From positions 1 to 46,563 of the IMG/VR virus record IMGVR_UViG_2861038214_000001: DNA of 46,563 nucleotides. One strand, written 5' to 3'. The notes beneath the pieces were generated by a model. That model searched no databases. It saw only the letters and a program-made list of their open reading frames with translations, and was not told the origin of the DNA. This DNA is from a virus. Its lineage: Duplodnaviria; Heunggongvirae; Uroviricota; Caudoviricetes. The position numbers and the translations under genes are program-made. Of the stretch, positions 20,705-45,480 are shown piece after piece. The stretch's first letter is position 1. The number at the start of each line of letters is the position of its first letter.

Positions 20705-22120
20705 ATGAACGAAGATGATATCGCAATCGGCAGTTGCTCGCCGGAGCTGATCACGCTCCTGGACAGCGATGACATTCAGCCGGGTATGTCGGCTGGCTAT
20801 CAGACCTGCAAAACGATTTACCTCTTCCACCCGTTGGGCGGGAAAATGGTAGATCGCCCGATCAAGATGGCGATGAACGAGTCGCGCACGGTTCACATTT
20901 CGCAGGCGTATGGCATTGAGCAGCGTCTCCGCGATGCATTTGAGCGGGAGTGGAAAGCACTGGGCGCCGATAAGCACATCGCTAATGCGGCGCGCATCTC
21001 TCGCATTTACGGTGTTTCGGCGATCGCAATGCTGGTTGATAACCAGGAGCCGTCCTCTGCGGTGGACTACCGCACGCTGTATAAGCACAACGTGACATTC
21101 AACATTCTCGACCCGCTGAACACTGCCGGAAGCATCGTCCTGAACCAGGATCCGAACGCGCAGGACTTTCAGAAGGTCGACGGGATCAGAGTGGCGGGCA
21201 AGCCGTATCACAAATCCCGCTGTGTTGTGCAACAGAACGAGGACCCGATTTATCTGGCCTATAACTCTGCTGCCTTTGGCTTTACCGGTCGCAGCGTTTA
21301 CCAGCGCGCTCTGTTCCCGCTGAAATCCTTCATCCAGACCATGCGCACCGATGACATGGTTTCCGTGAAGGGTGGCTTGCTGGTAACGAAGATTCAGGGA
21401 CCGAGCTCAGTCGTCAACAACATGATGCAAAAGCTCAGCGGCATCAAACGAATGATGCTGAAGCGAGGGAAGACAGGCGAAGTCCTGCAGATCGGCGCAA
21501 ATGACAGCATCGAATCCATCGACCTGAGCAACCTGGAAAAGCCGCTCGACTCCTCCCGGAATCACATTCTGGAGAATATCGCTGCGGCAGCTGACATGCC
21601 GGCTATCATTCTGAACTCGGAAACATTCGCCCAGGGCTTCGGCGAGGGGACGGAAGACGCTCGATCTGTTGCAGTCTACATCGACAACATCCGCGAGTGG
21701 CTTGAGCCGCTGTATGACTATTTCATCCGTATTTGCCAGTATCGCGCCTGGAGCATTGAGTTTTTCAATTCTCTGCGTGCTGACTTCCCGGAGCTTAAAA
21801 ACACGTACAGCCTGTATTTCTCCTCATGGATTAACAACTTCGAATATCGCTGGCCGTCATCCCTGAAAGAGCCGGAAAGCGAAAAAGTGAAGGTCGACGA
21901 AATCCGCTTTAAGGCCATCGTCAGCATGCTGGAAGTCCTTCTCCCGCAGGTCAACACGGATGATGAGAACCGCGCTCTTCTTATCGAGTGGGCGCAGACC
22001 AACGCGAACGCTAACGAAAGCCTGTTCCCGCAGCGGCTCGATCTCGATATCGACTCTCTAAAGGCTAATCGGCCTGAACAGCCACGGGATGAAGAGCCCG
22101 GCGGCGAGATGATGCTATGA
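20705..22120 (+). CDS. portal protein (putative)
   Basis: ORF track; size and position after terminase. Confidence 0.7.
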   Translation: MNEDDIAIGSCSPELITLLDSDDIQPGMSAGYQTCKTIYLFHPLGGKMVDRPIKMAMNESRTVHISQAYGIEQRLRDAFEREWKALGADKHIANAARISRIYGVSAIAMLVDNQEPSSAVDYRTLYKHNVTFNILDPLNTAGSIVLNQDPNAQDFQKVDGIRVAGKPYHKSRCVVQQNEDPIYLAYNSAAFGFTGRSVYQRALFPLKSFIQTMRTDDMVSVKGGLLVTKIQGPSSVVNNMMQKLSGIKRMMLKRGKTGEVLQIGANDSIESIDLSNLEKPLDSSRNHILENIAAAADMPAIILNSETFAQGFGEGTEDARSVAVYIDNIREWLEPLYDYFIRICQYRAWSIEFFNSLRADFPELKNTYSLYFSSWINNFEYRWPSSLKEPESEKVKVDEIRFKAIVSMLEVLLPQVNTDDENRALLIEWAQTNANANESLFPQRLDLDIDSLKANRPEQPRDEEPGGEMML

Positions 22121-22950: not shown

Positions 22951-24564
22951 GTGGCTATTTTTGGCAGCGGGATAATGTTCCGTCAGGGGAAGTTCGTCTT
23001 CCTGATCCAGCGCTCGGATGATGGCACATGGTGCCAGCCGGGCGGGACGATAGAGCCGGGAGAGTTAGCCATAGACGCCGCACGGCGCGAGGTGCTGGAG
23101 GAAACAGGCTATCAGTACGATGGCCCGCTGACGCCGCACAGCGTACATGGTGACTACCTGACCTACCGCGCCGACGTGCCGGAGCAATTCGAAGCGAAGA
23201 TAAACGACGAATCGCTGGCCGCCGGATGGTTCCATATTGACGATCTGCCAAAGCCGCTTCATCAGCCATTCGCTGAAATGCTGGCGCAGCAGGCGCTCAA
23301 CGAAACCGACGTGGCCGCGCTCATCGCTGACGGAACGCTCAGCAGCCCGCAATATTTTTACAACATGTGGATGTTCGCCATCCGGGTGACCGGAACAGGG
23401 GTTGCCTGGCGATCTGCAGATCAGGAGATGACGTTCCGTAACCCGGACGACTATCTCACCCCTGAATTTCTCCAGCGGGTAGCTGGCGTACCACTTATCT
23501 GGCTTCACCCCGAAAAAAGAACACTTGATAGCGACGAGTTCTCAAAGCGCGTTATTGGCACCCTGACAAATGCCTGGGTTGCCGATAAGGGCGAAGTGTG
23601 GGCCGTTGCGCGTGTGTACGACGCCGAAGCTGCTGAAATTATGGCAACAAGGCAATTAAGCACCTCGCCAACTGTGAAGTTCTCAGAGGTTGCTCAATCA
23701 ATCATTGTCGACGGTCAGCCTCTACTGGTGGAGCCATCCCCCGAGCTGCTCGACCACGTTGCAATTTGTGAACAGGGCGTGTGGGACAAGCTCCTTGCCC
23801 CTACCGGTGTTAAATCTGATTCCATTCCTGAAGAGGCTGAAAAGATGGACGAGGAAAAAATCGTAGCGCTGATTAATAAGGCGATCGATGCGCGTTTGGC
23901 TAAGGCCGACGAAGAGAAGGAAGCGAAAGCCAAGGCTGACGCCGAAGAGGCCGCCAAGAAAGAAAAGGCTGACGCAGAAGACAAAGAAGCGGAAGAGGCG
24001 AAAGCTAAAGCCGACGCGGAAGAGAAAGCCGCGAAGGAAAAAGCTGATGCTGAAGCCAAAGAAAAGGCGGATGCCGAAGAGGCTGAGAAAATGGCAAAAG
24101 AAAAAGCCGACTCTCAAATCCTCCAGGAAATTGCTGAGCTTCGCTCCCGCATTCCTACCGAACTGAGCGACGAAGAGCGCAACGAAGTTGCAGAAGCGCA
24201 GGTGAAAGCCGATAGCGTCTTCTCCAGCTTTGGCAAACGCGCCCCGATCCCGCTGTCCGGTGAAAAACCGATGGCGTATCGCCGCCGTCTGATGATTCAA
24301 CTGCAGGAGCATTCTCCGGACTACAAAGCCGTCGATCTCTCTGCCATCGCTGATTCTCAACTGCTGAGCACTGCCGAAAAGCATATCTACGCTGATGCGC
24401 AGAAGGCGGCCAGCCTGTCAGTTGGTCCCGGTATGCTGCGCGAGATTAAGCGCGCCGATGCAACCGGTCGCCAGATCAGCACCTTTGAAGGCGATCCCGC
24501 CGTCACCTGGGCGCCGTTCCAGTCTGGCAAGCGTCAGGTCACCAGTTTTAACAACCAGGCTTAA
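22951..24564 (+). CDS. NUDIX hydrolase domain fused to head protease/scaffold-like protein (537 aa)
   Basis: ORF track; complete Nudix box G-x5-E-x7-REV-x-EE-x-GY ([24 protein letters not shown]) at residues about 30-53; central domain of unknown fold; KAKADAEE-type coiled-coil repeats; sits where protease/scaffold normally lies. Confidence 0.7.
23880..24125 (+). repeat. in-frame imperfect tandem repeats encoding (E/K)-A-K-A-D-A-E-E heptad-like units
   Basis: repeated GCnGAnGCnGAAGAG-type units seen in DNA and protein. Confidence 0.7.
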
Positions 24565-31357: not shown

Positions 31358-33238
31358 ATGGTAGCTAAGTCGATCGTCGACATTGACGTAAATGACGACA
31401 AGTTTGTCGCGTTTATGGAAAGGTTTCGCGAGTACCAGAGCGCGCTGGATGATTTACCGGAAGCCTGGCGGGTAGCTGCCGTTGGTATTGGAGAAAGCAG
31501 CAAGCAGACCGAAAAGGCCAAAGGTGAGGCGAAGGAGTTAGGCGCGGAGTTTAATGCCGTGGCCGAGGCCATTCTGACCATCAACAGCGGTATCGATCGG
31601 CTCAATACCAACCTGGAAGACTCGAAGAAAAAGCAGGACGAATTCAACAAAAGTACTCGCTCTGCGAAGGGCTTCCTCAGCGATGCGACGAAAGACGCTA
31701 AATCGCTGGCAGGGCATATCAAGGAAGCGACGGCCAGCCTTCTGTCATGGGGTGGCATTGTCGGGATATTTACCGGCGTCCTTGGCGTTGGCGGCCTGTT
31801 CGGCATCAACCGGCTGGCTGCCACCACCGGTGCCCAGCGGTTTACTTCTCTCGGGCTTGGGACGAGTATCGGCGCACTTGATTCCACCGCCATAAACTAC
31901 CAGAAAGCACTCGGTAATCCGGCGGGTACGCTGGGCGCTATCCGCGATTCGCAAATGGACCTGTCGAAGCGCTGGACGTTTCAGGCGATGGGGATTAACA
32001 ACCCCGACCAGGACCCGGCCAAACTGCTCCCGCAGATGATCCGTAATGCGCGCGATATCTTCGTGCAGAACGGCAGCACGCTGCAGGGCGCACAGGCGCA
32101 CGGCCTGACAAACTTCTTTACGCTGGATGACCTGAACCGCTTCAAAAACATGAGCGATGAGGAGATCACCGCCATGGAGAAGCGCGCGCAGCAGGATGCG
32201 CGCATGTTGCAAATTACCGACCAGCAGGCGCGCCAGTGGCAGGATTTTAACGTTCAGCTCGACTACAGCAGCCAGAGCATCAGAAACACGTTTGTGCGCG
32301 GCCTGGGTCCACTCACGCCGCAGCTGAGCAAACTGTCTGATGCGCTGTCAGGCGCGATCGATACCGTCCTGAAATCCCCAGAACTCGGCAAGTGGATTGA
32401 TGGTCTGGCGCGCGGTATTGAAAGATTTGGCAACTACCTGTCTTCTCCTGAATTCACCAGTGATGTTCTCAGTTTCATGGATGGTGTTAAAAGGCTTGGA
32501 CAGTCTGTTTCTCGATTAATAGACCTATTCGCTGGAAAAATTAGCCTTTCAGAGTTTATGTCTGGCTCGTCCAGTATTCTTGGCAGTTCAACAAGGGAAG
32601 ATGCTGAAGGTAGTCAGCCCTACGTTCCGGGTAGTGAGAGTGATCCGCGCGTTTGGGGTGTTCTTAAATGGGGTAAAATGGCATCAGGTGTCGCCCCCAC
32701 GCAGTATGATGATTATTTTTCCGAGGCTGCTAAAAAGTACAATGTCGATCCTCGATGGCTAAAAGCCATCGCTGCGGGGGAATCCTCTTGGGATCAGAAC
32801 GCTGTTAGTAAAGCGGGCGCAAAAGGGTTAATGCAGGTGATGCCTGGCAACTTCCAGCCGGGAGAAAATCCATTTGACCCGCGGGACAACATCATGGCTG
32901 GCGCCCGAGTTTTCTCCTGGGCGATGCAGAGCGCGAATGGTGATCTCGACGAAGCGCTGCGTTATTACAACGGCGGAAGCCGCCGCGAGAGTGCAGAAAA
33001 TAGGGCTTATCCCGGCAGGATCAGGGAAAAGTATGCTGCGATGTATGGGGCGCCGAAGAACAATGACGCTTCTGGCGTCGATAGTTCAGAAATTGCCAAA
33101 AATACCTCGAAAACTAACCAACTCCTGCAGCAGATCGTTGATGGGAAAGGCGGCAGAGGCGGGAGCGGTGACGTTGTTATTTATAACAACACCGGCGGGA
33201 ATGCCGTGGTAACTTCAGCGCAATTGGGGGCGAGGTAA
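31358..33238 (+). CDS. tape measure-like protein with C-terminal lytic transglycosylase (SLT) domain
   Basis: ORF track 31292..33238 with start refined to ATG after AGAGG SD; hydrophobic Gly-rich segment; SLT motif AAGESSWDQNAVSKAGAKGLMQVMP. Confidence 0.7.
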   Translation: MVAKSIVDIDVNDDKFVAFMERFREYQSALDDLPEAWRVAAVGIGESSKQTEKAKGEAKELGAEFNAVAEAILTINSGIDRLNTNLEDSKKKQDEFNKSTRSAKGFLSDATKDAKSLAGHIKEATASLLSWGGIVGIFTGVLGVGGLFGINRLAATTGAQRFTSLGLGTSIGALDSTAINYQKALGNPAGTLGAIRDSQMDLSKRWTFQAMGINNPDQDPAKLLPQMIRNARDIFVQNGSTLQGAQAHGLTNFFTLDDLNRFKNMSDEEITAMEKRAQQDARMLQITDQQARQWQDFNVQLDYSSQSIRNTFVRGLGPLTPQLSKLSDALSGAIDTVLKSPELGKWIDGLARGIERFGNYLSSPEFTSDVLSFMDGVKRLGQSVSRLIDLFAGKISLSEFMSGSSSILGSSTREDAEGSQPYVPGSESDPRVWGVLKWGKMASGVAPTQYDDYFSEAAKKYNVDPRWLKAIAAGESSWDQNAVSKAGAKGLMQVMPGNFQPGENPFDPRDNIMAGARVFSWAMQSANGDLDEALRYYNGGSRRESAENRAYPGRIREKYAAMYGAPKNNDASGVDSSEIAKNTSKTNQLLQQIVDGKGGRGGSGDVVIYNNTGGNAVVTSAQLGAR

Positions 33239-33948
33239 TGGGATTCACACGTGAAATGTATAAGCTGGGTTTTGAAATATCCCCAGTAATACTTTGCGGA
33301 GGGATAGCGCAGGCCATTCCTGGAGGAATGCTCCCGATCGTCGCTTTGACGCAGAGCGCGAGCTTTGTTACGGGGCTGCTTGGAGGAGCCATAAACCTAA
33401 CCGATCTGGATAAATATTTCTGCCACTGGCGCCCGGTTCAGGGCGCCACAATGGTTGATTATGAAATTGCCAGATACCCTTTCGCCAACCAGGTAGTAGC
33501 TGCGAACGCCTTGCTTGCTCAGCCTTTGCGCGTTTCGTTGGTAATGGAGGCCCCGGTCAATGAAAACACCGGGGCGATGACAAAGCTCGTCACTATGAGT
33601 GCTTTGCAGTCTGTCCTTCAGGCGCATTCTAACTTAGGCGGCACGTTTATCGTCGCCACCCCATCCGTTATCTATAGCAACTGCATTTTGCGTGTCGTGA
33701 GGGACATCACTTCTGGTAATGATCCATTACCACAGCGTTCATGGATATGGGATTTCGAGCAGCCACTGATAACCGATAATGGTGCAGAGCAGGCTGTGAA
33801 CAATTTTTTAAACAAGATTGGCGCCGGGGATATGGTAACCGACCCATCCTGGACTAATACCGCCAATGCTCTTGGCAACACGCCACTCGGGAGCTCTGTA
33901 TCGGAAGCAATAACCGGCCTATTGGGTAAGTTGGGGGTAGGGCCATGA
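33238..33948 (+). CDS. tail/baseplate protein (hypothetical, 236 aa)
   Basis: ORF track; synteny. Confidence 0.55.
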   Translation: MGFTREMYKLGFEISPVILCGGIAQAIPGGMLPIVALTQSASFVTGLLGGAINLTDLDKYFCHWRPVQGATMVDYEIARYPFANQVVAANALLAQPLRVSLVMEAPVNENTGAMTKLVTMSALQSVLQAHSNLGGTFIVATPSVIYSNCILRVVRDITSGNDPLPQRSWIWDFEQPLITDNGAEQAVNNFLNKIGAGDMVTDPSWTNTANALGNTPLGSSVSEAITGLLGKLGVGP

Positions 33949-34223
33949 CAACCCAGAATTATCCGTTTACCGGCAATGATCGTCAAAGCATGACATTTAC
34001 ACCGATCCTTGATGGCACCGTCTATAACTGCCAGGTTAAATGGAACATTGCCGGGCTGAGGTGGTATGTCCTCATTACAGATGGCTCTGGGAATACCATT
34101 CTAAATACCCCGCTCGTTGGCTCCGAGCTTAACGGTGGAATAAATATTATCTCCGGAGTGTTTAATTCGTCCTCCATGTACTGGCGCGAACAGAATGGAC
34201 TGATTGAGGTAAACAGTTCATGA
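33945..34223 (+). CDS. small tail protein (92 aa)
   Basis: ORF track. Confidence 0.55.
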   Translation: MTTQNYPFTGNDRQSMTFTPILDGTVYNCQVKWNIAGLRWYVLITDGSGNTILNTPLVGSELNGGINIISGVFNSSSMYWREQNGLIEVNSS

Positions 34224-35257
34224 GATATTATGATATTGAGATAACCATTCCTGCTGAAGGTGCCTCTCCGGAAAGAACGATAAAATACAGTAGCCATAAG
34301 AACGGAGTTTACAACCCCGGCGCCCTGATGATTGAGTTTGATATCCTCAGGTACGGTGAATCGACTCCCCAGGGCGAAACTCACCTGACCATCTGGGGTA
34401 TTGGCCCAAAAGAAATGCAGCAGGCTCGCCAGAATTTTTTTGGCAAAAAAATTAAAATATTCCTTGGGATGAAAGACGGGCTGCCATTGGCTGGCAAGGT
34501 TACCGCACCAAAACTGGTATTGGATGGCGTGATAAATCAGGTATTTGGTAACTGGCAGGGTATTGAGTTACGACTTGACTTCATAATCGTGGTTGGTCCT
34601 GTCCAGAACGTGCCAAATAACAAACCCGTACCCCTTCCTTTAACCTTTGACTGGAAGGAGGGGCAGAAGCTTTCTGTAGCCCTCACGCAGTGTTTTATGA
34701 ACATCAGAGGGTATACGTTCAATATCAACATAAGCGACCGGCTAATCCTTAATCATTACCGGGGGCTGTTTTGTGATGACATTGTCACCCTGGCCAAGGA
34801 CCTTAATGCTTTTTCACGTTCCAGAATTCGCGATAGCGGGTACTCTGGTGTAGAGATCGCAATAGTGAATGGTAATGAGATCCGGGTATGGGATAACGAT
34901 TATGATAACCACCCGGATAAGACTTCTGTTTCCAGCGCCGTAGCCAGAAGTAACAGCCCAACCCAAATAGATTTCAAGGATTTGATAGGTCAGCCAACAT
35001 GGGTGGCATTTAACACAATCAGCATGGCGTGCGTAATGCGCGGTGATATTCAGGTTGGTGATCACATCCTGATGCCTAAAAAAAGCACTCCGTTGATACA
35101 GGCCTCTTCGTACTCTCAATACCGAGAAGACTCTGCCTTTACTGGCGACTTTATCGTGAACTCCGTTCGCCTGTTAGGAAATAGCAGGCAACCAACGGCA
35201 GAAGCATGGGTAACAATTATTGAAGCTTCACCTTTCATTAAGGCAGGTAATGCATGA
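34220..35257 (+). CDS. baseplate hub-like protein (putative, 345 aa)
   Basis: ORF track; synteny. Confidence 0.5.
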   Translation: MRYYDIEITIPAEGASPERTIKYSSHKNGVYNPGALMIEFDILRYGESTPQGETHLTIWGIGPKEMQQARQNFFGKKIKIFLGMKDGLPLAGKVTAPKLVLDGVINQVFGNWQGIELRLDFIIVVGPVQNVPNNKPVPLPLTFDWKEGQKLSVALTQCFMNIRGYTFNINISDRLILNHYRGLFCDDIVTLAKDLNAFSRSRIRDSGYSGVEIAIVNGNEIRVWDNDYDNHPDKTSVSSAVARSNSPTQIDFKDLIGQPTWVAFNTISMACVMRGDIQVGDHILMPKKSTPLIQASSYSQYREDSAFTGDFIVNSVRLLGNSRQPTAEAWVTIIEASPFIKAGNA

Positions 35258-35970
35258 GCATCGACAACAAGCTTAATTTTGCCTCAAGCATGAACAGGTT
35301 TACTGAAAGAAAGATTGAAAATGCGCTTCAAAAATCAGGGAAAGTTCTTCCGGCGAGCGTGGTTAAGCAAACTGGGAATATGATCACCGTCTCCTTCGAG
35401 CTAAGGGATATCCCATATGTTTTGCCGCAAGTGACTATCCCCTTATTTGGCCCTCAATATATTCGTTACCCTATGCAGCCGGGAGATAAGGGGATTGTTA
35501 TCCCCGCAGATACTTACATTGGCGGCGTTAGCGGTCAGGGAGGCGGCATTGCAGATATGACTCCGCCAGCAAACTTAAGCGCCCTCGTTTTCTTGCCGAT
35601 CAGTAATACCGAGTGGCAGGGTGTCGACGGACAGGTGGTGACGGTATACGGGCCGGAGGGTGTAACGCTGCGCGACAGTGGCAGCAACACGACGTTTCTC
35701 CTGAAGCCTGACAGCATCGCCATTTCCACACCTGACAGCTTCACCGTCACCGTTGGCGGGACAGTCATCTCACTAATCGGGACAAAATGGAGCATTTCAG
35801 GCGAGGCAGGGCATCTGCAGGACTCTGTGGCCAGCACCAGCCCGGCAATCATGCACGCCGGGTGGCAGTCGCTTCTGGCCTGGCTTAACAGCCATGAGCA
35901 TTCAAACGGCAACGATGGAAATGATACCGGGGGGCCGACTTCAACGTTTAACGGGAGTATCACCGAGTGA
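35254..35970 (+). CDS. baseplate protein (238 aa)
   Basis: ORF track; synteny. Confidence 0.5.
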   Translation: MSIDNKLNFASSMNRFTERKIENALQKSGKVLPASVVKQTGNMITVSFELRDIPYVLPQVTIPLFGPQYIRYPMQPGDKGIVIPADTYIGGVSGQGGGIADMTPPANLSALVFLPISNTEWQGVDGQVVTVYGPEGVTLRDSGSNTTFLLKPDSIAISTPDSFTVTVGGTVISLIGTKWSISGEAGHLQDSVASTSPAIMHAGWQSLLAWLNSHEHSNGNDGNDTGGPTSTFNGSITE

Positions 35971-36299
35971 GAACCTATGGCCGAAACTCTGAGGGGAAGT
36001 GGGTCCTGGTGGAAACCGACGAAAATGGGTTTAATGACTCGGTGTATTTGACCACCCTGATCCAGAATCTGAAACTGGCGCCTCAGGAGTCGCCATTTTA
36101 CGCCAATAACGGAATCCCGGCCGCCGGGTCGGTGATCCAGCAAATCCTGCCGACGTATTACGTAAACCGTATTCAGAAACAGTTCAGCCAGTATTTTTCC
36201 TCGCTGCAGATTGCGCTGATCAGCGACGACCCGCCTGTTTATAACATCTCGGCAATCACAAACGCAGGTTCAAAAATAATTACACAGGTGGCCGTATGA
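35967..36299 (+). CDS. small baseplate protein (110 aa)
   Basis: ORF track. Confidence 0.5.
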   Translation: MRTYGRNSEGKWVLVETDENGFNDSVYLTTLIQNLKLAPQESPFYANNGIPAAGSVIQQILPTYYVNRIQKQFSQYFSSLQIALISDDPPVYNISAITNAGSKIITQVAV

Positions 36300-37714
36300 G
36301 CGATTTACCAGTCAGCTATACGTCAGCAGGCCCGGTTCCTCTGACGCCGGAAGAGCTAAGAGCACAGCTCGTTTCTCAGGCAATTGCGTTATCTCCGGGA
36401 CTCACCACGGATTTGCCTGGCTCTCTGATTGAAGACGTGGCCAGCACTGATGTCGGCGCACTTATCGTCTGCGATCAGGCGAGGGTTGACCTTATTAACT
36501 CGGTGGGGCCGCTAAAGGCTAACCTGTCCATGCTGGAGCTTCTTGCACAGCAGGCTGGTATCCCTGGGCAGAAAACGGCTGGCACAACAACAGTCCCGGT
36601 TCAGTTTTCCGGCCCGGCGGGATTTGTTATCCCACAGGGGTTTATTGTTTCAGATGGGACCTATACCTATTCAGTCAGTGATGCGACGATTATCTCGTCG
36701 TCTGGAGTATCTGCCAGCGTATCATGCGAGGGAACGGAGACCGGAACCTGGGCGGTGCCGGTAAATACGGTTAACCAGATCATATCCAGTCTACCGTCTG
36801 ACGTCACCATCACCTGCACCAACCCGATCGCCGGCACTCCGGGTGCTGACCCGGAAACGAACTATCAGTTTCGTGATCGCGTATGGCAGGCGCAGATGGC
36901 CACCGTTCAGGGATATCCTGGATTTATCCGGCAATATCTCACCAGCCTTGATAACGTGCAGGCGCGCCTGGTTTCTGTCATTCAGGACGGGGATAAGTGG
37001 ATAGTCATGTGTGCCGGCGGTGATATTTACGATATTGCTGGCGCGCTCTATAAGTCTGCGGGGGATATCAGCAGGCTGAAAGGGTGTTCACTGAACGTAA
37101 CGGGGATCACGAATGCAAATCCTGGTGTCGTCAGCACAGACCTGACTCATGGTTACACTGACGGCCAGGTTATCCGGATCACTGGCGTTACCGGGATGAC
37201 GGGCATCAATGACGTTCCTCTGACCGTGACGGTGCTGTCTCCTCACACTTTTTCCATCGGGATTGATACCACTTCATCCGGGACTTGGGGAGGCGGCGGC
37301 GAGGTGACACCGAACGTCAGAAACAATACCGTGACGGTGAATGACTGGCCTGATAACTACGTGATCCCGTTCGTGACCCCATTGCTGCAGCGGGTCACAG
37401 TGACGTATCAGTGGGGCACTGAAAGCGTTAACTACCTGACTGATGCCACGGTCGCCTCTTTGGTCTCGGCGCCTACGATTCAGTATGTGAATGGCATATT
37501 CGCCGGTAAACCGCTGAACGTTAACAACCTGAAAGATGCATTCTTGCAGGCGATTAACTCGACAATCGACATGGGGCTGATCAGCACTCTAAACGTCGTG
37601 GTCACCGTCAATGGTGTGATAACGCCACCGGATGCCGGGACGAATATCATCAGCGGGGATAAGTTCAGTTATTTTTATATCGCGTCGGATGGCGTGATCG
37701 TAACAGGGGCGTAG
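36296..37714 (+). CDS. baseplate J-like protein (putative), contains Ig-like module
   Basis: ORF track; size/synteny; shares module with 24580 and 28823 proteins. Confidence 0.5.
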   Translation: MSDLPVSYTSAGPVPLTPEELRAQLVSQAIALSPGLTTDLPGSLIEDVASTDVGALIVCDQARVDLINSVGPLKANLSMLELLAQQAGIPGQKTAGTTTVPVQFSGPAGFVIPQGFIVSDGTYTYSVSDATIISSSGVSASVSCEGTETGTWAVPVNTVNQIISSLPSDVTITCTNPIAGTPGADPETNYQFRDRVWQAQMATVQGYPGFIRQYLTSLDNVQARLVSVIQDGDKWIVMCAGGDIYDIAGALYKSAGDISRLKGCSLNVTGITNANPGVVSTDLTHGYTDGQVIRITGVTGMTGINDVPLTVTVLSPHTFSIGIDTTSSGTWGGGGEVTPNVRNNTVTVNDWPDNYVIPFVTPLLQRVTVTYQWGTESVNYLTDATVASLVSAPTIQYVNGIFAGKPLNVNNLKDAFLQAINSTIDMGLISTLNVVVTVNGVITPPDAGTNIISGDKFSYFYIASDGVIVTGA

Positions 37715-37715
37715 C

Positions 37716-38420
37716 ATGCTGGACGATATCATCCGGTCGTATATGTATACGCAATACAACGACGATGACAATCTGCGGGCGTTTTTTACTGCGTATAACT
37801 CGATGGCGCAGGGCATTTATGACTGGATGGTTAATGCCAACCTGCCGATTTTCATCGGTGACTACAACACTGGAGACCAGCTCCGGTGGATTGCCCATGG
37901 CATCTATGGCGTGTTGCCGCCGGTGATTTCCAGCAGCGATCAGCAGGAGATAGGCCCATATAACACCTTCGAATTTAACCAGCTGGCATTCAATGAGTAC
38001 CGGGTGATTGACCAGTCGAACCAGGTTGTTGTCTCCGATGACCTTTTTAAGAGGATCATGACCTGGAATTTTTATAAAGGTGACGGCTTCTATTTCTCTA
38101 TCCCATGGATAAAGCGGCGTATTCTTCGGTTCCTGTTGGGAGTGAATGGCACTGACATTCTCAATGACCAGCGGTGGAGTATATCGATCCAGTTTGTGGA
38201 TGGCGGTATCGTGATATCCATCTATAAGGGGCGGCGTAGGTTCACGCGTAGCGCCATCTACAACGCATCGGCCTATAACTCCAGGAAGTACAACCAGAAG
38301 GATACGGCCTTTGTGATCACCGAGGATTTCGAGTTCGCCATTTTCTTCAAGCAGGCCATGGATAGCGGCCTGCTGCACATGCCGTTCTATCAGTCCATTT
38401 CGGTGGAAATTATTGATTGA
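37716..38420 (+). CDS. tail protein (234 aa), putative fiber attachment
   Basis: ORF track; synteny. Confidence 0.5.
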   Translation: MLDDIIRSYMYTQYNDDDNLRAFFTAYNSMAQGIYDWMVNANLPIFIGDYNTGDQLRWIAHGIYGVLPPVISSSDQQEIGPYNTFEFNQLAFNEYRVIDQSNQVVVSDDLFKRIMTWNFYKGDGFYFSIPWIKRRILRFLLGVNGTDILNDQRWSISIQFVDGGIVISIYKGRRRFTRSAIYNASAYNSRKYNQKDTAFVITEDFEFAIFFKQAMDSGLLHMPFYQSISVEIID

Positions 38421-38447
38421 AGCACAGTTCCTGTGGTGTAGAATTTA
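38416..38447 (+). promoter_or_regulatory. candidate sigma70 promoter (TTGATT … TGTAGAAT) flanked by 8-bp inverted repeat CTGTGGTG/CACCACAG
   Basis: hexamers and inverted repeat seen directly upstream of the moron ORF. Confidence 0.35.
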
Positions 38448-39229: not shown

Positions 39230-39254
39230 AAACCCGCTTCGGCGGGTTTTTTTT
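39230..39254 (+). terminator. intrinsic terminator (AAACCCGC-TTCG-GCGGG + T8)
   Basis: seen in sequence after moron. Confidence 0.7.
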
Positions 39255-39275: not shown

Positions 39276-41423
39276 ATGGCACTAACCCTTTTGGCTACAA
39301 ACAACGCAGAAAGCACGCTGGCTTCTGCTATCAGCGCAACCGACACGTCGCTGATCGTTAGCGCTGGAACTGGTGCCGAGTTCCCTGATGCTGTGGCAGG
39401 CGAGAGTTATTTTAAGCTCACTCTCACCGATGCCGCCACCGGCTCACAGGTTGAGATCGTGAACGTGACAGCTAAGGCTGGAGACATCTTCACGATTGAG
39501 CGTGCGCAGGAAGGAACGCTGGCGCGTGCGTGGGCGGCCAATGATATGGTTGCCAACATGATGACGGCGGACACGCTGAACATTATCGCTCAATATTCCC
39601 AGCAGGCAGCTGCATCAGCAGCACTGGCTGAAGAGTATGCAGATAACGCTTCTGACTACGCACAGAATAAGTTCACGTTCTATAAGACTGCCAGCGATCC
39701 TGATGGCACCATCGCAGGGCTGGCAGCAACTACTGACGGCCAGTCTTTCTGGGTAGCCCAGGGTCCGGATGCGCTTTCTTCTGCATGGCAGTATCAAAAC
39801 AAAGCAGGCGTGGCCGTATTGCAGGCGAAGCAGCCGGGTACAGCGGCCATAACAGGGACAACCCGCGAGTTTCCGACGCTGGCTGCGGCACAGGCTGATG
39901 CTGACGCAGGGAATATACAACCAGGAGCGAAATGCTGGGTGACAAGCGCGGATGATAGCTCTCTTGCAAATGAATATATAAACAACTCCGGAACTTTGCA
40001 GCCTACAGGAGTAATCTCTCCTTCTTCAAAAACAATCGATAATAAAATTAATGAACGCCTCGTCCCAGGTGAATACAGGCCTGGTTATTTCCCGGCCTTC
40101 TTTGACAGGAATGGTATGGTGCCAGCATGGTTTGATGGCGGCAAATTTGATGTGGCAGGACTGGGGCCAAATGTTACACAGGTTGTTTCTGAAATTCCAA
40201 ACGAATGGGCCCAGAAGTTTATCCCGCAAGGAGACTTTTCACCTTATTACTTTCCTTTTTTATATGACCAACAAGGGAACGTATATGCTTGGTTTAATGG
40301 TGGGCTATTCGATGCTCCAGGTCTTGGCCCGGTATTGCAGGAATATGTCAAAAACCTGGTGTCTGGTGGGGAAGTTGATGCGGTACGTTCCTTCATCGAA
40401 GGAGATCAGTACAAGTTCCTTTTCAAAAATAGCCGTATTTTTGCTGGCCAGTCTACCAGCCTAAACATTGCTTTTACCGGCGATTCGTGGACAGAGAAAA
40501 ACACCATTCCTCAGTCTTTAATTAATATTCTTGGTGGTACATACAAAGACCCTGGGTGGATTAGTTGTTCAAACAGAACAGATGGTGTCATGTCTGGAAT
40601 ATCACCAGTAACCGCAACAAACTTTACGAAATATGACGGTGGCAGCAATAACACGAACATTCCGCCGTATGGCTGTGGCCCTGATGGCAACGGATACTAC
40701 AACAACAACACTGTTGGTTCGCTCGTATGGACGGGCGTGACCGTAACAAATCTTTCGGTATTTTACTATGATGGGTCTGGAACGTTCACCATCACCATCG
40801 ACAGCAATGCACCTGTAACAATCACGGGAGGGAATACAGGGACTGCCAAGAAGTATGATTTCAGCGGACTTAGCGCTACTGCACATACGGTGACAATCCA
40901 AAGCACCGGTACTGGTGTTGTTTCCATTCTTGGTATGTATGGTAAAAATAACTCAATATCATCAGGGGTGACTGTATCCAGGATGGGTAATGGAGGAGCA
41001 TTTGCAAGTGACTATTTCAACTTTTCATCATGGATAAAGCCAGTAGCTCAATACCTTGATATAGACCTCCTTTTTATTATTCTTGGAACGAATGACTTCC
41101 GGATGAGTCAGGGGCTAGCTGAGTACAAATCTGGGATTATTGAAATAATTACTAAATATAGAAGCGCAACTCCTGATATTTGCATTTGCCTTATGTCCCC
41201 TGCACAGTGTAACGCCACAGGAACACCCGCACTGTCAGAATACGATAAAGCAATGAGGGAAATAGCGGTTGAATATAATGTAAATTTCATTAGTGGTTAT
41301 CAATTATTCCCCAAAGTGTATAGCAGTTCAGGAGGTGCGTGGGAAGATGCCTTGCATCTTAGCGCCTTGGGCGCATATGTACTAACGAGAAAGATCAAAA
41401 AAGAATTTTTCCTGGGAGCTTAA
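39276..41423 (+). CDS. tailspike/tail fiber with conserved N-terminal anchor domain and C-terminal SGNH/GDSL esterase domain
   Basis: ORF track 39219..41423 trimmed to ATG after GGAGGAG SD; GDS motif (IAFTGDSWTE) and DxxH (WEDALHL) near C-terminus. Confidence 0.75.
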   Translation: MALTLLATNNAESTLASAISATDTSLIVSAGTGAEFPDAVAGESYFKLTLTDAATGSQVEIVNVTAKAGDIFTIERAQEGTLARAWAANDMVANMMTADTLNIIAQYSQQAAASAALAEEYADNASDYAQNKFTFYKTASDPDGTIAGLAATTDGQSFWVAQGPDALSSAWQYQNKAGVAVLQAKQPGTAAITGTTREFPTLAAAQADADAGNIQPGAKCWVTSADDSSLANEYINNSGTLQPTGVISPSSKTIDNKINERLVPGEYRPGYFPAFFDRNGMVPAWFDGGKFDVAGLGPNVTQVVSEIPNEWAQKFIPQGDFSPYYFPFLYDQQGNVYAWFNGGLFDAPGLGPVLQEYVKNLVSGGEVDAVRSFIEGDQYKFLFKNSRIFAGQSTSLNIAFTGDSWTEKNTIPQSLINILGGTYKDPGWISCSNRTDGVMSGISPVTATNFTKYDGGSNNTNIPPYGCGPDGNGYYNNNTVGSLVWTGVTVTNLSVFYYDGSGTFTITIDSNAPVTITGGNTGTAKKYDFSGLSATAHTVTIQSTGTGVVSILGMYGKNNSISSGVTVSRMGNGGAFASDYFNFSSWIKPVAQYLDIDLLFIILGTNDFRMSQGLAEYKSGIIEIITKYRSATPDICICLMSPAQCNATGTPALSEYDKAMREIAVEYNVNFISGYQLFPKVYSSSGGAWEDALHLSALGAYVLTRKIKKEFFLGA

Positions 41424-41425
41424 TA

Positions 41426-42175
41426 ATGCCGATATCAGCTATTTATATAGACGCCACTCTTCCAGTTATCTCTGGAATGAAAACTTTATCTGACTTTGAT
41501 GTGTCAAACTGGTTTATTGGCCTGCCAACCACAGGTGCAACTCCTTATGCTGGTTTCTATTTCGGGGACCCGGTAACAGATATTACTTACGACTCATACG
41601 ATCAAAATAACCCGGCGGTGATTAACGGGACAGTGAATAACACTGGCGGGTTTATTACCGTTAATCCTAGTAACTATCTGGATACAAGGAAGAAAGCAAC
41701 ACTTAGTGTTACCATTTGCGGAGTGGTAAAAAGGAATGCCGCAGCTGGACTGAACTCTCATATGATTGCGGATTATGCAGGAAGCGGCTCTACGGCCAGT
41801 GGCTTTTCTATAGGCTTTGACACCACCGGGCGATTGTTCTGTGTAGCTCAAAATACCGGGCAGTCTGCTGTGTATGCTTATGCTGATTTTCCTTCATCGA
41901 TAGCTGCAGGAAGTCTATTTGCTTTTGTGGCCACTGTTAATCAGGGAGTGGTGGCAATCGATATTTTCAACGCCGCGACCTCCACACTGGTGTCAGCGAC
42001 ATCAACCCTGCCAGGGACAAGGGTTGCTGGCACAAATAACGTACTGATGGGTAGAAAGGTGGATAACAACGTAGAAACATCCAGCAAGTATATTAAGTCA
42101 ACATTGCTAATGAACGGCTCTTTAACTTCTGCTGAAAAAATATCTGTCTCTCAATTTTTACTGGCGATGCAATAA
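41426..42175 (+). CDS. hypothetical protein (249 aa) downstream of tailspike
   Basis: ORF track; Thr/Gly/Asn-rich; possible lectin-like beta-sandwich (weak). Confidence 0.5.
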   Translation: MPISAIYIDATLPVISGMKTLSDFDVSNWFIGLPTTGATPYAGFYFGDPVTDITYDSYDQNNPAVINGTVNNTGGFITVNPSNYLDTRKKATLSVTICGVVKRNAAAGLNSHMIADYAGSGSTASGFSIGFDTTGRLFCVAQNTGQSAVYAYADFPSSIAAGSLFAFVATVNQGVVAIDIFNAATSTLVSATSTLPGTRVAGTNNVLMGRKVDNNVETSSKYIKSTLLMNGSLTSAEKISVSQFLLAMQ

Positions 42176-42179
42176 AGGT

Positions 42180-42419
42180 CTATGCTCTCAGATGTTTGAC
42201 GCATAAGAAGAATTGCAACTTACCACCATCAGTAAGCTCCACCATTATCGTGTTAGTGCCATCTGAAATTTCAGTCCATCCATGTGACTGTAGGACCTCG
42301 TAGTCGATCCCAGGCTTGCTGAGCTTGAGGCCCAGGCCATCGGATTTACGTAGTATTCTGCGAACAAGAGTGTCACTTTTTGTACTCATTTTGGTGGCGG
42401 AGTGTCTTGGATAAAACAT
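42180..42419 (-). CDS. small basic hypothetical protein (70-79 aa), divergent from LexA-box operon
   Basis: ORF track; no convincing SD at either candidate start. Confidence 0.3.
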   Translation of the reverse strand: MFYPRHSATKMSTKSDTLVRRILRKSDGLGLKLSKPGIDYEVLQSHGWTEISDGTNTIMVELTDGGKLQFFLCVKHLRA

Positions 42420-42517
42420 GTATTGATATCAATTATTTGTGTGAAAAGCAATTTAAGAGGCTACCGGAAGATAAAACAAAGTCATCATCAAGTATTGATC
42501 CGACTCTTTGATGAAAC

Positions 42518-42537
42518 TACTGTATATAAAAACAGTA
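42518..42537 (+). promoter_or_regulatory. LexA (SOS) box TACTGTATATAAAAACAGTA
   Basis: perfect CTGT-N8-ACAG with AT-rich spacer, about 18 nt upstream of the 42555 ATG. Confidence 0.7.
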
Positions 42538-42554
42538 TCAATCAGAGGCAGATC

Positions 42555-42794
42555 ATGCACCGTCAGTCAGACATCGCCGCGGCTTTCCGCGAGTCCATTT
42601 TGCGCAGTTCCAAGGGGTTCCAGTACCTTCACACCCGAGACTTCGTTACCGCACTGCTCCTGCGCGGCATCCACTTATCCGAGGTGGAGGCGAACTCCTG
42701 GATCGCACGCGAGCAGACGTATTTCGTCGATAAGACGCCGGACCATAGCGAAAACAGGCTGTGGATGATGGCCAACATGGGGAGGGTTCTGTAA
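42555..42794 (+). CDS. hypothetical protein (79 aa), first gene of LexA-box operon
   Basis: ORF track 42402..42794 trimmed to ATG with AGAGG SD. Confidence 0.55.
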   Translation: MHRQSDIAAAFRESILRSSKGFQYLHTRDFVTALLLRGIHLSEVEANSWIAREQTYFVDKTPDHSENRLWMMANMGRVL

Positions 42795-43111
42795 TGGGCT
42801 TTCCATCACCCGCGACGGACTACACGGAACAGCGATTAACGGTTAACTCGATCTGCAATGTCGGGCCAAATACGCGCCTCTTCGAGCGATCAGGCGGTTA
42901 TGTTGTGCTGGATATCTCCCTGAAGCCATCACAAGGCAGTCAGGTTCTGATCCAGCACGGAGGCGGGACAGAGCTTGCCACGCTGAGAGGAAGGTCGCTG
43001 ATTACCGAAGATGGCGAGGCGATCGAGGGCGAAGCCCTGGACGATGTTGCGGTCATCGGGGTCGTGACATTTACTATCTGCGATGTTCGCTCTGATAATT
43101 CTATTATTTAA
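42794..43111 (+). CDS. UmuD'-like (S24 peptidase-fold) protein lacking N-terminal arm and catalytic Ser/Lys (105 aa)
   Basis: ORF track 42761..43111 trimmed to ATG (TAATG overlap, GGGGAGGG SD); GFPSPATDYTEQR aligns to UmuD GFPSPAADYVEQR; SGGYV replaces SGDSM. Confidence 0.6.
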   Translation: MGFPSPATDYTEQRLTVNSICNVGPNTRLFERSGGYVVLDISLKPSQGSQVLIQHGGGTELATLRGRSLITEDGEAIEGEALDDVAVIGVVTFTICDVRSDNSII

Positions 43112-43122
43112 CTGGGGTATAT

Positions 43123-44154
43123 ATGGCGCTGAAGCTATTAGCCAATAATAACGCAAAGAGTGTGCTCGCTGCGGGTATTAGCGCGTCCGCTACCGTTATT
43201 ACCGTGGGTACTGGAGCGGGGTCATTATTCCCTTCCCCTGTATCTGGGCAGAGTTATTTCAAATTAACGATAACCGACGCGGCCACGAAAACAATTTCTG
43301 AAATTATGCACGTCACGTCTGTATCCGGTGACGTGATGACAGTAATTCGTGGTCAGGAAGGAACTACGGCACGCGTATGGTCAACGAATGACATTGTCGC
43401 GAATTTAATGACCGCCGGATCATTGTTATCATTCCTGCAGATCAGCAATAACCTGTCAGAAATTAAAGATGCCGGTGAGGATGCGATAAATGAAGCCCGT
43501 TATAACCTCGGAATATCTGATTCCTCTGGTTTTGTCGGGCGTTCACTTGGCGCTCCAAAAGCTTTCTATGCAAACGGAACCTATACGCGATCTCCTCTGG
43601 CCCGTTATGCAAAAGTAACGTTGACCGGTGCCGGTGGCGGCGGTGGCGGCTGCCAGGCCTCCAACAATACAGAAACCTTCTCCGGTGCTGGCGGCGGCGC
43701 GGGCGCGACCATTATCGTATGGGTTGACCTGTCTGCTGCCAGTTCTTACGCGATTACTGTCGGCAAGGGTGGTAAGGGCGGAGTTGGCGCAGTAAGTGGT
43801 GCGGATGGTGGTGCTACCTCGTTTGCCAGCCTGTTCTCAGCTCCTGGCGGGAAAGGCGGCGTGAAGTCAGGCGTGTCCAATACCGCCGGCGGCGCCGGAG
43901 GTACGGCGGCGACCGGAGATATCAGGATCAACGGTGGTACCGGCTCAGATGGACAGACAGGCTCAAGCCTTCTGACGGGCAACGGCGGGGCGTCGTATTT
44001 TGGCGGCGGTGGCCGGGCGGGTTCTCAGGCCGGTATTGCTGGCGCAGCTCCCGGATCCGGTGGTGGTGGCGCGTATGACCTCGGGTTTACCGGTACGGCA
44101 TTTACCGGTGGTGATGGTGCTACTGGCATGGCGATCGTGGAAGAATTCGCGTAA
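43123..44154 (+). CDS. second tail fiber/receptor-binding protein: same N-terminal anchor domain, Gly-rich C-terminal domain
   Basis: ORF track; N-terminal about 100 aa align with the 39276 protein. Confidence 0.7.
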   Translation: MALKLLANNNAKSVLAAGISASATVITVGTGAGSLFPSPVSGQSYFKLTITDAATKTISEIMHVTSVSGDVMTVIRGQEGTTARVWSTNDIVANLMTAGSLLSFLQISNNLSEIKDAGEDAINEARYNLGISDSSGFVGRSLGAPKAFYANGTYTRSPLARYAKVTLTGAGGGGGGCQASNNTETFSGAGGGAGATIIVWVDLSAASSYAITVGKGGKGGVGAVSGADGGATSFASLFSAPGGKGGVKSGVSNTAGGAGGTAATGDIRINGGTGSDGQTGSSLLTGNGGASYFGGGGRAGSQAGIAGAAPGSGGGGAYDLGFTGTAFTGGDGATGMAIVEEFA

Positions 44155-44158
44155 TGGC

Positions 44159-45316
44159 TTACACTCCTGCACGACCATCGATGTAATCAGCCCACCACTG
44201 CATCATTTCTCTGCGCTTATCGAGATACTGCGCATGGTTGTAAATACCGCGCACAGATCCGCCGTTGGCATGTGCCAGTTGCACTTCAATAGCGTCAGCA
44301 GGCCATTCGTGCTCGTTCATAATTGTGCTGAATTCATGCCTGAATCCGTGACCGCTTTCCAGACCCTCATAGCCGATTTGTTTGATCACAAGCAATACCG
44401 CGTTCTCGCAGATTGGCTTCTTCTTATCGTTGCGACCGGCAAAAACAAACTCTGATACTGGTTTAGTGATTGAGCTTAGCGTAGTGAGAAGTTCAACCAC
44501 CTGGTCTGACATAGGAACCACATGAATTTTGCGACCCTTCATCACACTGGCGTCGATGGTGATAATCCTGTTTTCAAAATCGACGTTCTTCCATTGCATG
44601 GAACGAAGCTCTTTCGTTCTTAGGGCTGTATAGCGTAAAACCTTGGTCGCAATGAGCGATACGATGCTTCCTGAAAATGTTGCCAGTGCTTTGTTAAATG
44701 CCGGGATCTGGTCTGCAGGAAGAAACGGGAAGTTTTTCTTGCGGTATCCCTTCATGGCGTCAGCAAGGTCAGGTGCCGGGTTATATTTAGCCCTACCAGT
44801 GACAATAGCGTAACGGAAAACCTCGCCACATCTTCTGCGGGCTTTGTTGGCTCGCTCCATTGCACCGCGATCTTCAAATCTGCGGATTACTTCCAGCAGT
44901 TGCATCGGCTCAATATCCAGAATCTCGAGACCGCCGATGATGGGTAAAATGTCGTCATCAAACATTTTGGCAAGTTCAGTCGCATACCCTACAGACCACA
45001 CTTGCTTCTTGTGCTCGTACCATTCCTTGTAAATGGCACTAAAGGAGTTGTTGTTAGACGAAGCCTTTTTCGCTTTTACCGGATCTATGCCAACCGAGAT
45101 GTCTTTCCTCGCAGTCCATGCTTTATCCCTTGCCTCCTGCAAAGTCATAAGCGGATATTTTCCGACAGTCAGGATTTTCTCCTTACCGTCAATCTTGTAG
45201 CGAAGCTGCCATACCTTTTTCCCTGACACAGGGACATAAAGGTACAGGCCATTACCATCGAGAAGGCGGTATGGTTTTTCTTTCGGCTTTGCTGCTTCAA
45301 TCTGCTTAACGGTGAG
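44159..45316 (-). CDS. intS: tyrosine integrase, P4-type (IntS-like, 385 aa from MLTVKQ…)
   Basis: ORF track 44159..45355; DUF4102 arm-binding N-domain; catalytic R…HxxR…Y region; start chosen at internal ATG by analogy to IntS (GTG at 45355 is the alternative). Confidence 0.85.
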   Translation of the reverse strand, partial: LTVKQIEAAKPKEKPYRLLDGNGLYLYVPVSGKKVWQLRYKIDGKEKILTVGKYPLMTLQEARDKAWTARKDISVGIDPVKAKKASSNNNSFSAIYKEWYEHKKQVWSVGYATELAKMFDDDILPIIGGLEILDIEPMQLLEVIRRFEDRGAMERANKARRRCGEVFRYAIVTGRAKYNPAPDLADAMKGYRKKNFPFLPADQIPAFNKALATFSGSIVSLIATKVLRYTALRTKELRSMQWKNVDFENRIITIDASVMKGRKIHVVPMSDQVVELLTTLSSITKPVSEFVFAGRNDKKKPICENAVLLVIKQIGYEGLESGHGFRHEFSTIMNEHEWPADAIEVQLAHANGGSVRGIYNHAQYLDKRREMMQWWADYIDGRAGV

Positions 45317-45480
45317 CATGGGTAAAAATCCGGTGGGTAAAATTATTTTATCCACTTTTTACCCGTCATGGAGTGCGGCTGTCAACGATCTGACGCGAAC
45401 CATTACGAACTGTGAATCTATGGAAGGCTTGCTATTCAGGGGATTTTGCGGACTGGTACGGATGGGAGCGAACTGATAAA
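45317..45480. promoter_or_regulatory. att arm / intS promoter region with GGGTAAAA direct and inverted repeats
   Basis: three GGGTAAAA(A) copies around the int start; candidate integrase arm-type or RDF sites. Confidence 0.4.

Follow-up and report, generated by a model that had tools for sequence, protein, structure and literature searches.

A Felixviridae-like prophage of Escherichia coli encodes two candidate receptor-binding proteins with diverged versions of one N-terminal anchor

How many receptor-binding proteins does a single contractile-tailed phage carry, and how would two of them attach to one tail? The question is raised by two genes near the right end of the DNA analyzed here, the whole 46,563-nucleotide stretch of IMG/VR virus record IMGVR_UViG_2861038214_000001 (Caudoviricetes), hereafter the window. 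The genes encode proteins that we call P1 and P2, and an earlier note made from the sequence alone had proposed that both are fibers mounted on the same baseplate adaptor. The explanation that we favor, and regard as probable though well short of secure, is that one contractile-tailed prophage phage carries two trimeric receptor-binding proteins, a P1 spike and a P2 fiber, each with its own version of an N-terminal anchor. The features on which this explanation rests are the following.

39276..41423, plus strand: P1, a 715-aa tailspike; RefSeq WP_001229353.1 (SGNH/GDSL hydrolase family protein), with matches to PF13472 and to phrog tail-fiber families
39276..39605, plus strand: P1-type N-terminal anchor, 55% identical to the P2 N-terminus and identical in gp28 of phage RothC and gp23 of phage Chronis
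40479..41357, plus strand: SGNH catalytic blocks of P1, with Ser404 (GDS), Gly571/Asn572, Asn606 (GTND) and Asp691/His694 (DALH)
43123..44154, plus strand: P2, a 343-aa tail fiber; named glycine-rich domain-containing protein in RefSeq

Comparison of P1 with P2 by BLASTP aligns residues 1-110 without gaps (60/110 identities, 72% positives, E 7e-33) and yields no alignment in the remainder of the two proteins, and a hidden Markov model (HMM) of the anchor finds exactly two copies in the window. The proposal of a common N-terminal domain of about 100 residues followed by unrelated C-terminal domains is thereby borne out. A search of the Protein Data Bank (PDB) with the anchor retrieved the tail fiber of the Ralstonia podophage GP4 (8jov chain 1, E 7e-10 and 5e-7), the sole solved structure with sequence-detectable homology, in which 18 chains form six trimers of the portal-tail complex. 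The anchor therefore has a homolog whose attachment to a tail is visible in a solved virion structure, although GP4 is a podophage and the C-terminal parts of its fiber are unrelated to P1 and P2. The GP4 fiber reportedly attaches to the nozzle. An exhaustive profile search, used for the anchor where a word-indexed search with its 106 residues gave only fragments, returned 16,464 representative proteins at E ≤ 1e-3. Among the best 150, which range from 85 to 1039 aa in length, the domain lies at the N-terminus with two exceptions, and the C-termini of 87 of these proteins include Gly_rich_2 (23), Gp53-like_C (13), Collar (6), TSP N-terminal, pectate-lyase/beta-helix, endosialidase and other domains. 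Because of these numbers, the N-terminal position and the varied C-termini, the profile evidence marks the anchor as a common, modular domain of phage receptor-binding proteins that is widespread and not special to the prophage at hand.

What kind of protein is P1? The anchor (residues 1-110) is followed by a conserved neck or junction (residues ~111-260) and by an SGNH esterase module with an inserted domain (residues 261-715). All four sequence blocks of an SGNH enzyme are found, with GDS at residues 402-404, GNGG at 571-574, GTND at 604-607 and DALH at 691-694, and across 24 homologs, down to 29% identity, Ser404, Gly571/Asn572, Asn606 and His694 are invariant and Asp691 is conserved in the consensus. 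The PF13472 profile scores 41.9 bits against a cut-off of 32.9 and covers just blocks II/III-V because of an insertion of ~165 residues between blocks I and II. The GDS and DxxH motifs from which an SGNH esterase had been predicted are thus genuine. Searched against the PDB, a profile of the module matches Ape1-type peptidoglycan O-acetylesterases and sialate O-acetylesterase (8gld, 8gkd and 4k3u, E 1.5e-5 to 6e-4); no phage esterase with detectable sequence similarity to P1 was found in the PDB searches. The same 455-aa module, at 47-73% identity, forms the C-terminus of annotated tail fibers in various types of lytic Klebsiella phage (Sin4, K59PH2 and KYP) and of an unnamed VLCpiM5b protein, while prophage copies are fused to several different N-termini and proteins of Klebsiella prophages are homologs of P1 at 55-73% identity. 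SGNH receptor-binding proteins are reported to rank with the most prevalent ones of Klebsiella prophages, esterase activity having been demonstrated for two (PMC13123978; see also PMC12115436). The modules described in those two studies are of the same type and were likewise reported to resemble Ape1-type enzymes, but the studies include neither a paired glycine-rich fiber nor a shared anchor, and the host here is E. coli. From these relationships P1 is classified as a carbohydrate O-acetylesterase-type SGNH esterase, unremarkable within a class that is already known. Such an enzyme would most likely strip O-acetyl groups from capsule or O-antigen polysaccharide, resulting in reversible, enzyme-assisted binding. 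The gene that follows P1 is listed here for its proximity.

41426..42175, plus strand: 249-aa protein, phrog_34046, starting 2 nt past the P1 stop

Homologs of this gene follow only the closest P1 alleles (IMG/VR loci L016, L024 and L033). The 249-aa protein, for which searches of Pfam and NCBIfam gave no match, may serve the esterase spike as an accessory protein or in its assembly.

P2 consists of the anchor (residues 1-106), a short helical linker (residues ~107-135) and a TNF-like plus glycine-rich receptor-binding domain (residues ~140-343). Glycine accounts for 29% of residues 136-343, and residues 153-340 match PF21722 (Gly_rich_2) with 52.5 bits against a cut-off of 24.3, which agrees with the glycine-rich, beta-structure-like domain that had been suggested for the second protein. 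An AlphaFold2 (AF2) model built from a 61-sequence alignment has a predicted local distance difference test score (pLDDT) of 81, mostly >90 in the glycine-rich part; a model built without an alignment (pLDDT 36) was discarded. The modeled tip shows the glycine-rich-motif lattice fold and is built like fiber gp24 of cyanophage Pam3 (PDB 7ypx, 7yfw), a virion fiber that its authors liken to the gp38 adhesin of phage S16. The glycine-rich domain of ALK/LTK is a more distant match with a likeness in fold only, and gp38 of Salmonella phage S16 is not among the matches listed for the model. The likenesses to known adhesins also have limits, since gp38 caps a long fiber whereas P2 carries its own anchor, and the single fiber type of Pam3, whose N-terminus is helical and disulfide-linked, has its own chaperone, gp25 (PMC9608196, PMC9942802), whereas the anchor of P2 is beta-rich and of the GP4 type and no chaperone gene accompanies the P2 gene. 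Homologous tips are found on recognized fibers: that of P2 shares 57% identity with the last 219 residues of the 1324-aa tail fiber of coliphage Goslar, P2-like long fibers end in such tips, and a Mu-like E. coli prophage has a 308-aa Gly_rich_2 protein in the tail-fiber slot, followed by a Caudo_TAP chaperone. Judged by profile and modeled fold, P2 is a genuine tail-fiber protein of the glycine-rich type seen in Pam3, and its tip would most likely bind a second surface receptor.

To what kind of phage do these proteins belong? The whole window corresponds, at 100% identity, to a prophage of E. coli WI1 (NZ_LT838196.1) that spans from torI beside dsdC to intS, tRNA-Arg and yfdC, with argW as its integration site. 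Two of its features bear on the position and the attachment of the fibers.

36296..38420, plus strand: baseplate wedge genes, encoding a 472-aa Baseplate_J-like protein and its 234-aa partner; PF04865, phrog_6
44159..45355, minus strand: IntS integrase, convergent with P2, its stop codon 4 nt past the P2 stop; right end of the prophage at tRNA-Arg

The early region is lambdoid and includes lysis genes as well as genes for a Q antiterminator and a cI-like repressor of the LexA family, and the tail is contractile, as a sheath (phrog_205, E 3e-51), a hub (phrog_196) and the Baseplate_J wedge protein were all detected. Tail and baseplate proteins are 47-100% identical in amino acid sequence to those of RothC and Chronis, most at >95%, and structural genes reach 100%. 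Phages of the RothC/Chronis type define the family Felixviridae (PMC12451628; preprint 10.1101/2024.12.02.626457), and the window comprises an entire temperate phage that is Felixviridae-like and combines a contractile tail with a compact baseplate. Like the window, RothC (gp28 and gp33) and Chronis (gp23 and gp26) have both anchor-bearing genes; the central modules of the large spikes differ, however, and Chronis, unlike the window, lacks the SOS promoter and 79-aa gene described below. In the KlebPhaCol preprint (10.1101/2024.12.02.626457), gp28 is the sole candidate receptor-binding protein flagged in RothC. The genes at 33238-38420 encode, in order, the tape measure, proteins of 236 aa, 92 aa, 345 aa (hub), 238 aa, 110 aa, 472 aa (J-like) and 234 aa, and then the fiber, an order that parallels gp17-gp24 of Pam3 with its six-component baseplate (PMC9942802). 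The 92-aa protein matches the Pam3 plug gp18 (PF22479) weakly, at 22.3 bits and under the cut-off of 24.2, and gene order and plug match together suggest a Pam3-like minimal baseplate. The 472-aa and 234-aa wedge proteins are the likely docking platform for fibers; PDB sequence searches with both matched no virion structure.

A comparison of related loci is informative as to the relationship between the two anchors. We fetched and classified 80 IMG/VR loci that encode the anchor. In class A (27 loci) Felix-type wedge genes occur with a large anchor-bearing spike and with a P2-type fiber beside the integrase or the contig end, as in the window. The 31 loci of class B have Felix-type wedge genes and a single anchor-bearing fiber, which is the next tail gene after the homolog of the 234-aa wedge protein, 0.3-3.6 kb downstream and sometimes past a small inserted gene; a Tfa-like open reading frame (ORF) follows the fiber in at least 17 of them. 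Class C (22 loci, together with PDP110P1 and PDP110P2) is without a detectable homolog of the Felix-type wedge genes, 4 of the 22 having too little upstream sequence to show a baseplate, and each member has a P2-type anchored fiber beside the integrase or contig end. One member, L055, encodes an E217-like hub, Baseplate_J and DUF2612 proteins, its own Gly_rich_2 fiber and a beta-helix spike, and alignment of the 234-aa wedge protein with the DUF2612 protein of class C phages by hhalign gives only P = 0.016 over 138 columns. As a separate observation, class C phages (L003, L004, L015, L022, L055 and others) have their own Gly_rich_2 fiber and a large spike besides the P2-type fiber, on which purifying selection is strong there. 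Amino acid identities among the anchors are as follows.

Within the spike type (P1): 87%
Within the P2 type: 86-90%
Spike type versus P2 type, across class A genomes: 58% (52-64%)
Class B single anchor versus spike type: 64%
Class B single anchor versus P2 type: 70%

The class B anchor is thus intermediate between the P1 and P2 types, and the pattern is consistent with an ancestral anchor that was duplicated and whose copies became two stable, diverged paralogs. For the P2-type anchors of classes A and C, NG86 estimates of dN/dS are ~0.04-0.06 at dS 0.6-0.9, and class B gives similar estimates, the pairs not being independent of one another; these values argue that P2 is maintained as a working protein. 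P2 is also kept in Chronis, a plaque-forming phage, though the SOS promoter has been lost there.

Where would the two anchors dock? The most likely site is the Felix-type baseplate, because the single fiber gene of class B is the next tail gene after the wedge genes. The idea of one and the same baseplate adaptor for P1 and P2 is weakened by the comparison, since the anchors form separate conserved clades (52-64% identity within genomes, 86-90% within a clade), P2-type anchors also occur with unrelated baseplates, and a chaperone gene is missing beside P2. That the anchors have diverged so stably suggests separate sites or avoidance of mixed trimers. In Pam3, one wedge unit offers two fiber platforms and the virion has twelve fibers (PMC9942802), which serves as an analogy only for P1 and P2 because the N-terminus of the Pam3 fiber is unrelated. 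We hypothesize that P1 and P2 each attach to the tail via their own version of the ancestral anchor, and that the divergence of these versions probably prevents mixed trimers and allows separate wedge positions. Dual receptor specificity of the phage would follow from such an arrangement. Several points weigh against this hypothesis. P2-type anchors up to 100% identical to that of the window (mean 93%) occur in the 22 class C loci and in PDP110P1/PDP110P2 with baseplate genes that have no sequence similarity to the window's, which makes the assignment of a docking partner tentative. The anchor part of the P2 model is moderately confident (pLDDT 54-81). There is no Tfa-like ORF in the window, RothC or Chronis, whereas a chaperone gene accompanies class B fibers, the Mu-like prophage fiber and the Pam3 fiber (PMC9608196). 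Finally, a search of the literature on Chronis, RothC and PdC23 gave no virion proteomics.

How would two separated fiber genes be expressed? A strong hairpin terminator at 39230..39249 on the plus strand ends an LprI-like moron directly upstream of P1, so that transcription of P1 needs Q-mediated read-through, and P1 would be expressed from the Q-antiterminated late transcript. From P1 to P2 the order is the 249-aa gene, a minus-strand 79-aa ORF, a promoter-like site with a LexA box, a plus-strand 79-aa gene, a 105-aa UmuD'-like gene and P2.

42495..42537, plus strand: promoter-like TTGATC-17 nt-TACTGT overlapping the LexA box, identified from sequence
42555..42794, plus strand: 79-aa gene, first of the SOS cassette; phrog_3893, present in HK140, HK225, mEp390, RothC and others
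42794..43111, plus strand: 105-aa UmuD'/HumD-like protein; phrog_3469

The minus-strand ORF (42180-42419), which is unannotated and runs convergently to the tail operon, matches neither PHROG nor Pfam families and may be spurious. The SOS cassette that the earlier note had placed between the two proteins is real. Its LexA box, TACTGTATATAAAAACAGTA at 42518-42537, is an operator predicted from sequence that agrees with the consensus at 18/20 positions and is the only AT-rich CTGT-N8-ACAG site within the window; it is presumably the same as the E. coli umuDC operator. One such box is present in each of 41 sequences (the window, RothC, PDP110P1/P2, HK140 and 36 IMG/VR loci), nearly always just upstream of the cassette, and among these the arms are kept and the spacer is variable. 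The 105-aa protein aligns with UmuD in BLASTP from Gly25, and its start coincides exactly with the N-terminus of UmuD' (GFPSPA); Tyr takes the place of the catalytic Ser60. The NCBIfam HumD profile gives 43 bits against a cut-off of 120, and the protein matches the UmuD'/HumD family neither by this profile nor by the Ser-Lys dyad. It appears to be UmuD'-like in its N-terminus only and looks like a pre-processed, protease-dead UmuD' mimic. A suspected likeness of the cassette to the lxr-humD operon of phage P1 was dropped, as there was no phage P1 record among 30 of the 43 tblastn matches to the 79-aa protein, sampled over the whole ranking, and HumD fell below its cut-off.

P2 starts 11 nt past the UmuD'-like gene with no terminator-like site between them. 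Separate regulation of P2, which had been raised as a possibility, is plausible because P2 lies behind a LexA-boxed promoter-like site, and in the prophage at hand P2 can probably be transcribed from this predicted SOS promoter. However, Chronis and ~40% of P2-bearing loci lack the cassette or retain no more of it than a 3' remnant of the UmuD'-like gene; therefore, P2 does not depend on the SOS promoter in general, and late read-through is the common route. HK140 has the cassette beside attP without a fiber gene. We propose that P2 would be reached by late read-through and, additionally, from the LexA-repressed promoter of the small SOS cassette inserted upstream.

Is P2 used at all by the phage that carries it? 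One alternative is that P2 is part of a mobile right-arm module (SOS cassette, fiber gene and integrase side) and is left unassembled, or is inefficiently assembled, on virions here. A nearly identical cassette and an identical P2 (~95% nucleotide identity) lie beside a different integrase in the unrelated PDP110P1 and PDP110P2, whose main spikes have no anchor; 22 IMG/VR loci follow the same pattern; no chaperone gene lies alongside P2; and a few copies are disrupted (L031, L032 and L056). We nevertheless consider this alternative unlikely, as the dN/dS of the anchor stays at ~0.04-0.06 in both genome classes and the anchor remains constant while different tips are exchanged on it (234 to 377 aa; C-termini both Gly-rich and of other kinds), as is characteristic of a host-range gene in active use. 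Moreover, most copies are intact, the closest 90%-identity cluster has 797 member sequences, and Chronis keeps P2 despite deleting the neighboring cassette. A related possibility, which we hold to be distinctly unlikely, is that the LexA-boxed cassette and P2 form one SOS-inducible, horizontally mobile module that adds a second receptor specificity to unrelated contractile-tail phages. If it were true, virions produced after DNA-damage induction would carry P2, or more of it, controlled separately from the late operon, and the anchor would dock on something common to several baseplate lineages.

Two further alternatives place both proteins on the virion in a different arrangement. In phage G7C, gp66 bears a T4 gp10-like branching domain on which gp63.1 docks, and P1 alone could likewise bind the baseplate and offer a site to P2, for example on its conserved neck. 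The neck or junction (residues ~111-255) is the one tail-region element, besides the cassette and P2, that is common to the window and PDP110P1/PDP110P2, and it is present in the large spike of 14/22 non-Felix P2-bearing loci. Such a branched complex is very unlikely, as the P2 anchor is paralogous both to the P1 anchor and to the single-fiber anchor of class B, which argues for direct docking on the baseplate, and a Pfam scan of P1 found no T4 gp10-like or TSP N-terminal branching domain of the kind associated with the branched complexes of G7C (gp66/gp63.1) and CBA120 (TSP1-4); PF18668 and PF21939 match some other anchor-bearing proteins and neither P1 nor P2. Docking on the neck is weakened further by P2-bearing loci without a neck-bearing spike (L043, L047, L050, L055, L053, L066, L072 and L088), and what most non-Felix spikes have in common with the neck is limited to a junction motif of ~50 aa immediately ahead of the variable module, which resembles a recombination joint more than a dock. 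Alternatively, P1 and P2 could compete for the same six or twelve wedge sites, resulting in mosaic virions in which the ratio is set by relative expression, including early, SOS-driven P2. The homology of the anchors, the LexA-controlled promoter-like site upstream of P2 with its 11-nt gap and lack of a terminator, and the twelve Pam3 fibers on two platforms per wedge (PMC9942802) are consistent with competition. This reading seems to us just as improbable as the branched complex, since the stable 52-64% divergence of the anchor clades over 26 genomes suggests specialized docking and the cassette is missing in ~40% of P2 loci. Two separately anchored proteins on one baseplate is thus the explanation that we retain.

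How does the arrangement compare with known systems? Dual-fiber phages, multi-fiber designs, SGNH esterase spikes and modular anchors are already established. The N4-like coliphage G7C, as cited in PMC13123978, has two receptor-binding proteins per virion, gp63.1 and gp66, one of them an SGNH esterase that deacetylates surface polysaccharide rather than cutting it. G7C, however, is a podophage, whereas the phage of the window has a contractile tail and its two proteins share a paralogous anchor instead. Specific to the present case are two diverged anchor paralogs on what appears to be a Pam3-like compact baseplate, a P2 gene behind a moron predicted to be LexA-controlled, and a second fiber that is unmentioned in the published description of Felixviridae. 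These are newly recognized temperate phages of gut Enterobacteriaceae whose host range has been discussed via one candidate spike only. If the adsorption apparatus includes a second, independently swappable fiber, host range would not be predictable from capsule or O-type alone, and engineering or typing of Felixviridae prophages would have to weigh both genes. Paralogous anchors on a Pam3-like minimal baseplate would also provide a simple system for studying how two fibers sort onto one wedge.

Some minor observations concern other parts of the window. RefSeq names two head-module proteins 'anti-CBASS protein Acb1 family' (20705-22120, 471 aa) and 'NUDIX hydrolase' (22951-24564, 537 aa); the former is encoded directly after the large terminase gene, and both names look doubtful for their position in the head module. 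The LprI-family lipoprotein gene between the baseplate genes and P1 (38413-39249), which encodes a signal peptide and a lipobox, has its own promoter-like site (38417-38444) and the strong terminator mentioned above, as is typical of a moron; its homolog in Chronis is 64% identical, and RothC has small reverse-strand ORFs there instead. Lastly, an insertion in the Baseplate_J-like wedge protein (36296-37714) corresponds, at residues 275-338, to the FCCH domain known from E1 ubiquitin-activating enzymes (PF16190, E 4e-14) and has PDB matches to UBA1 and UBA6.

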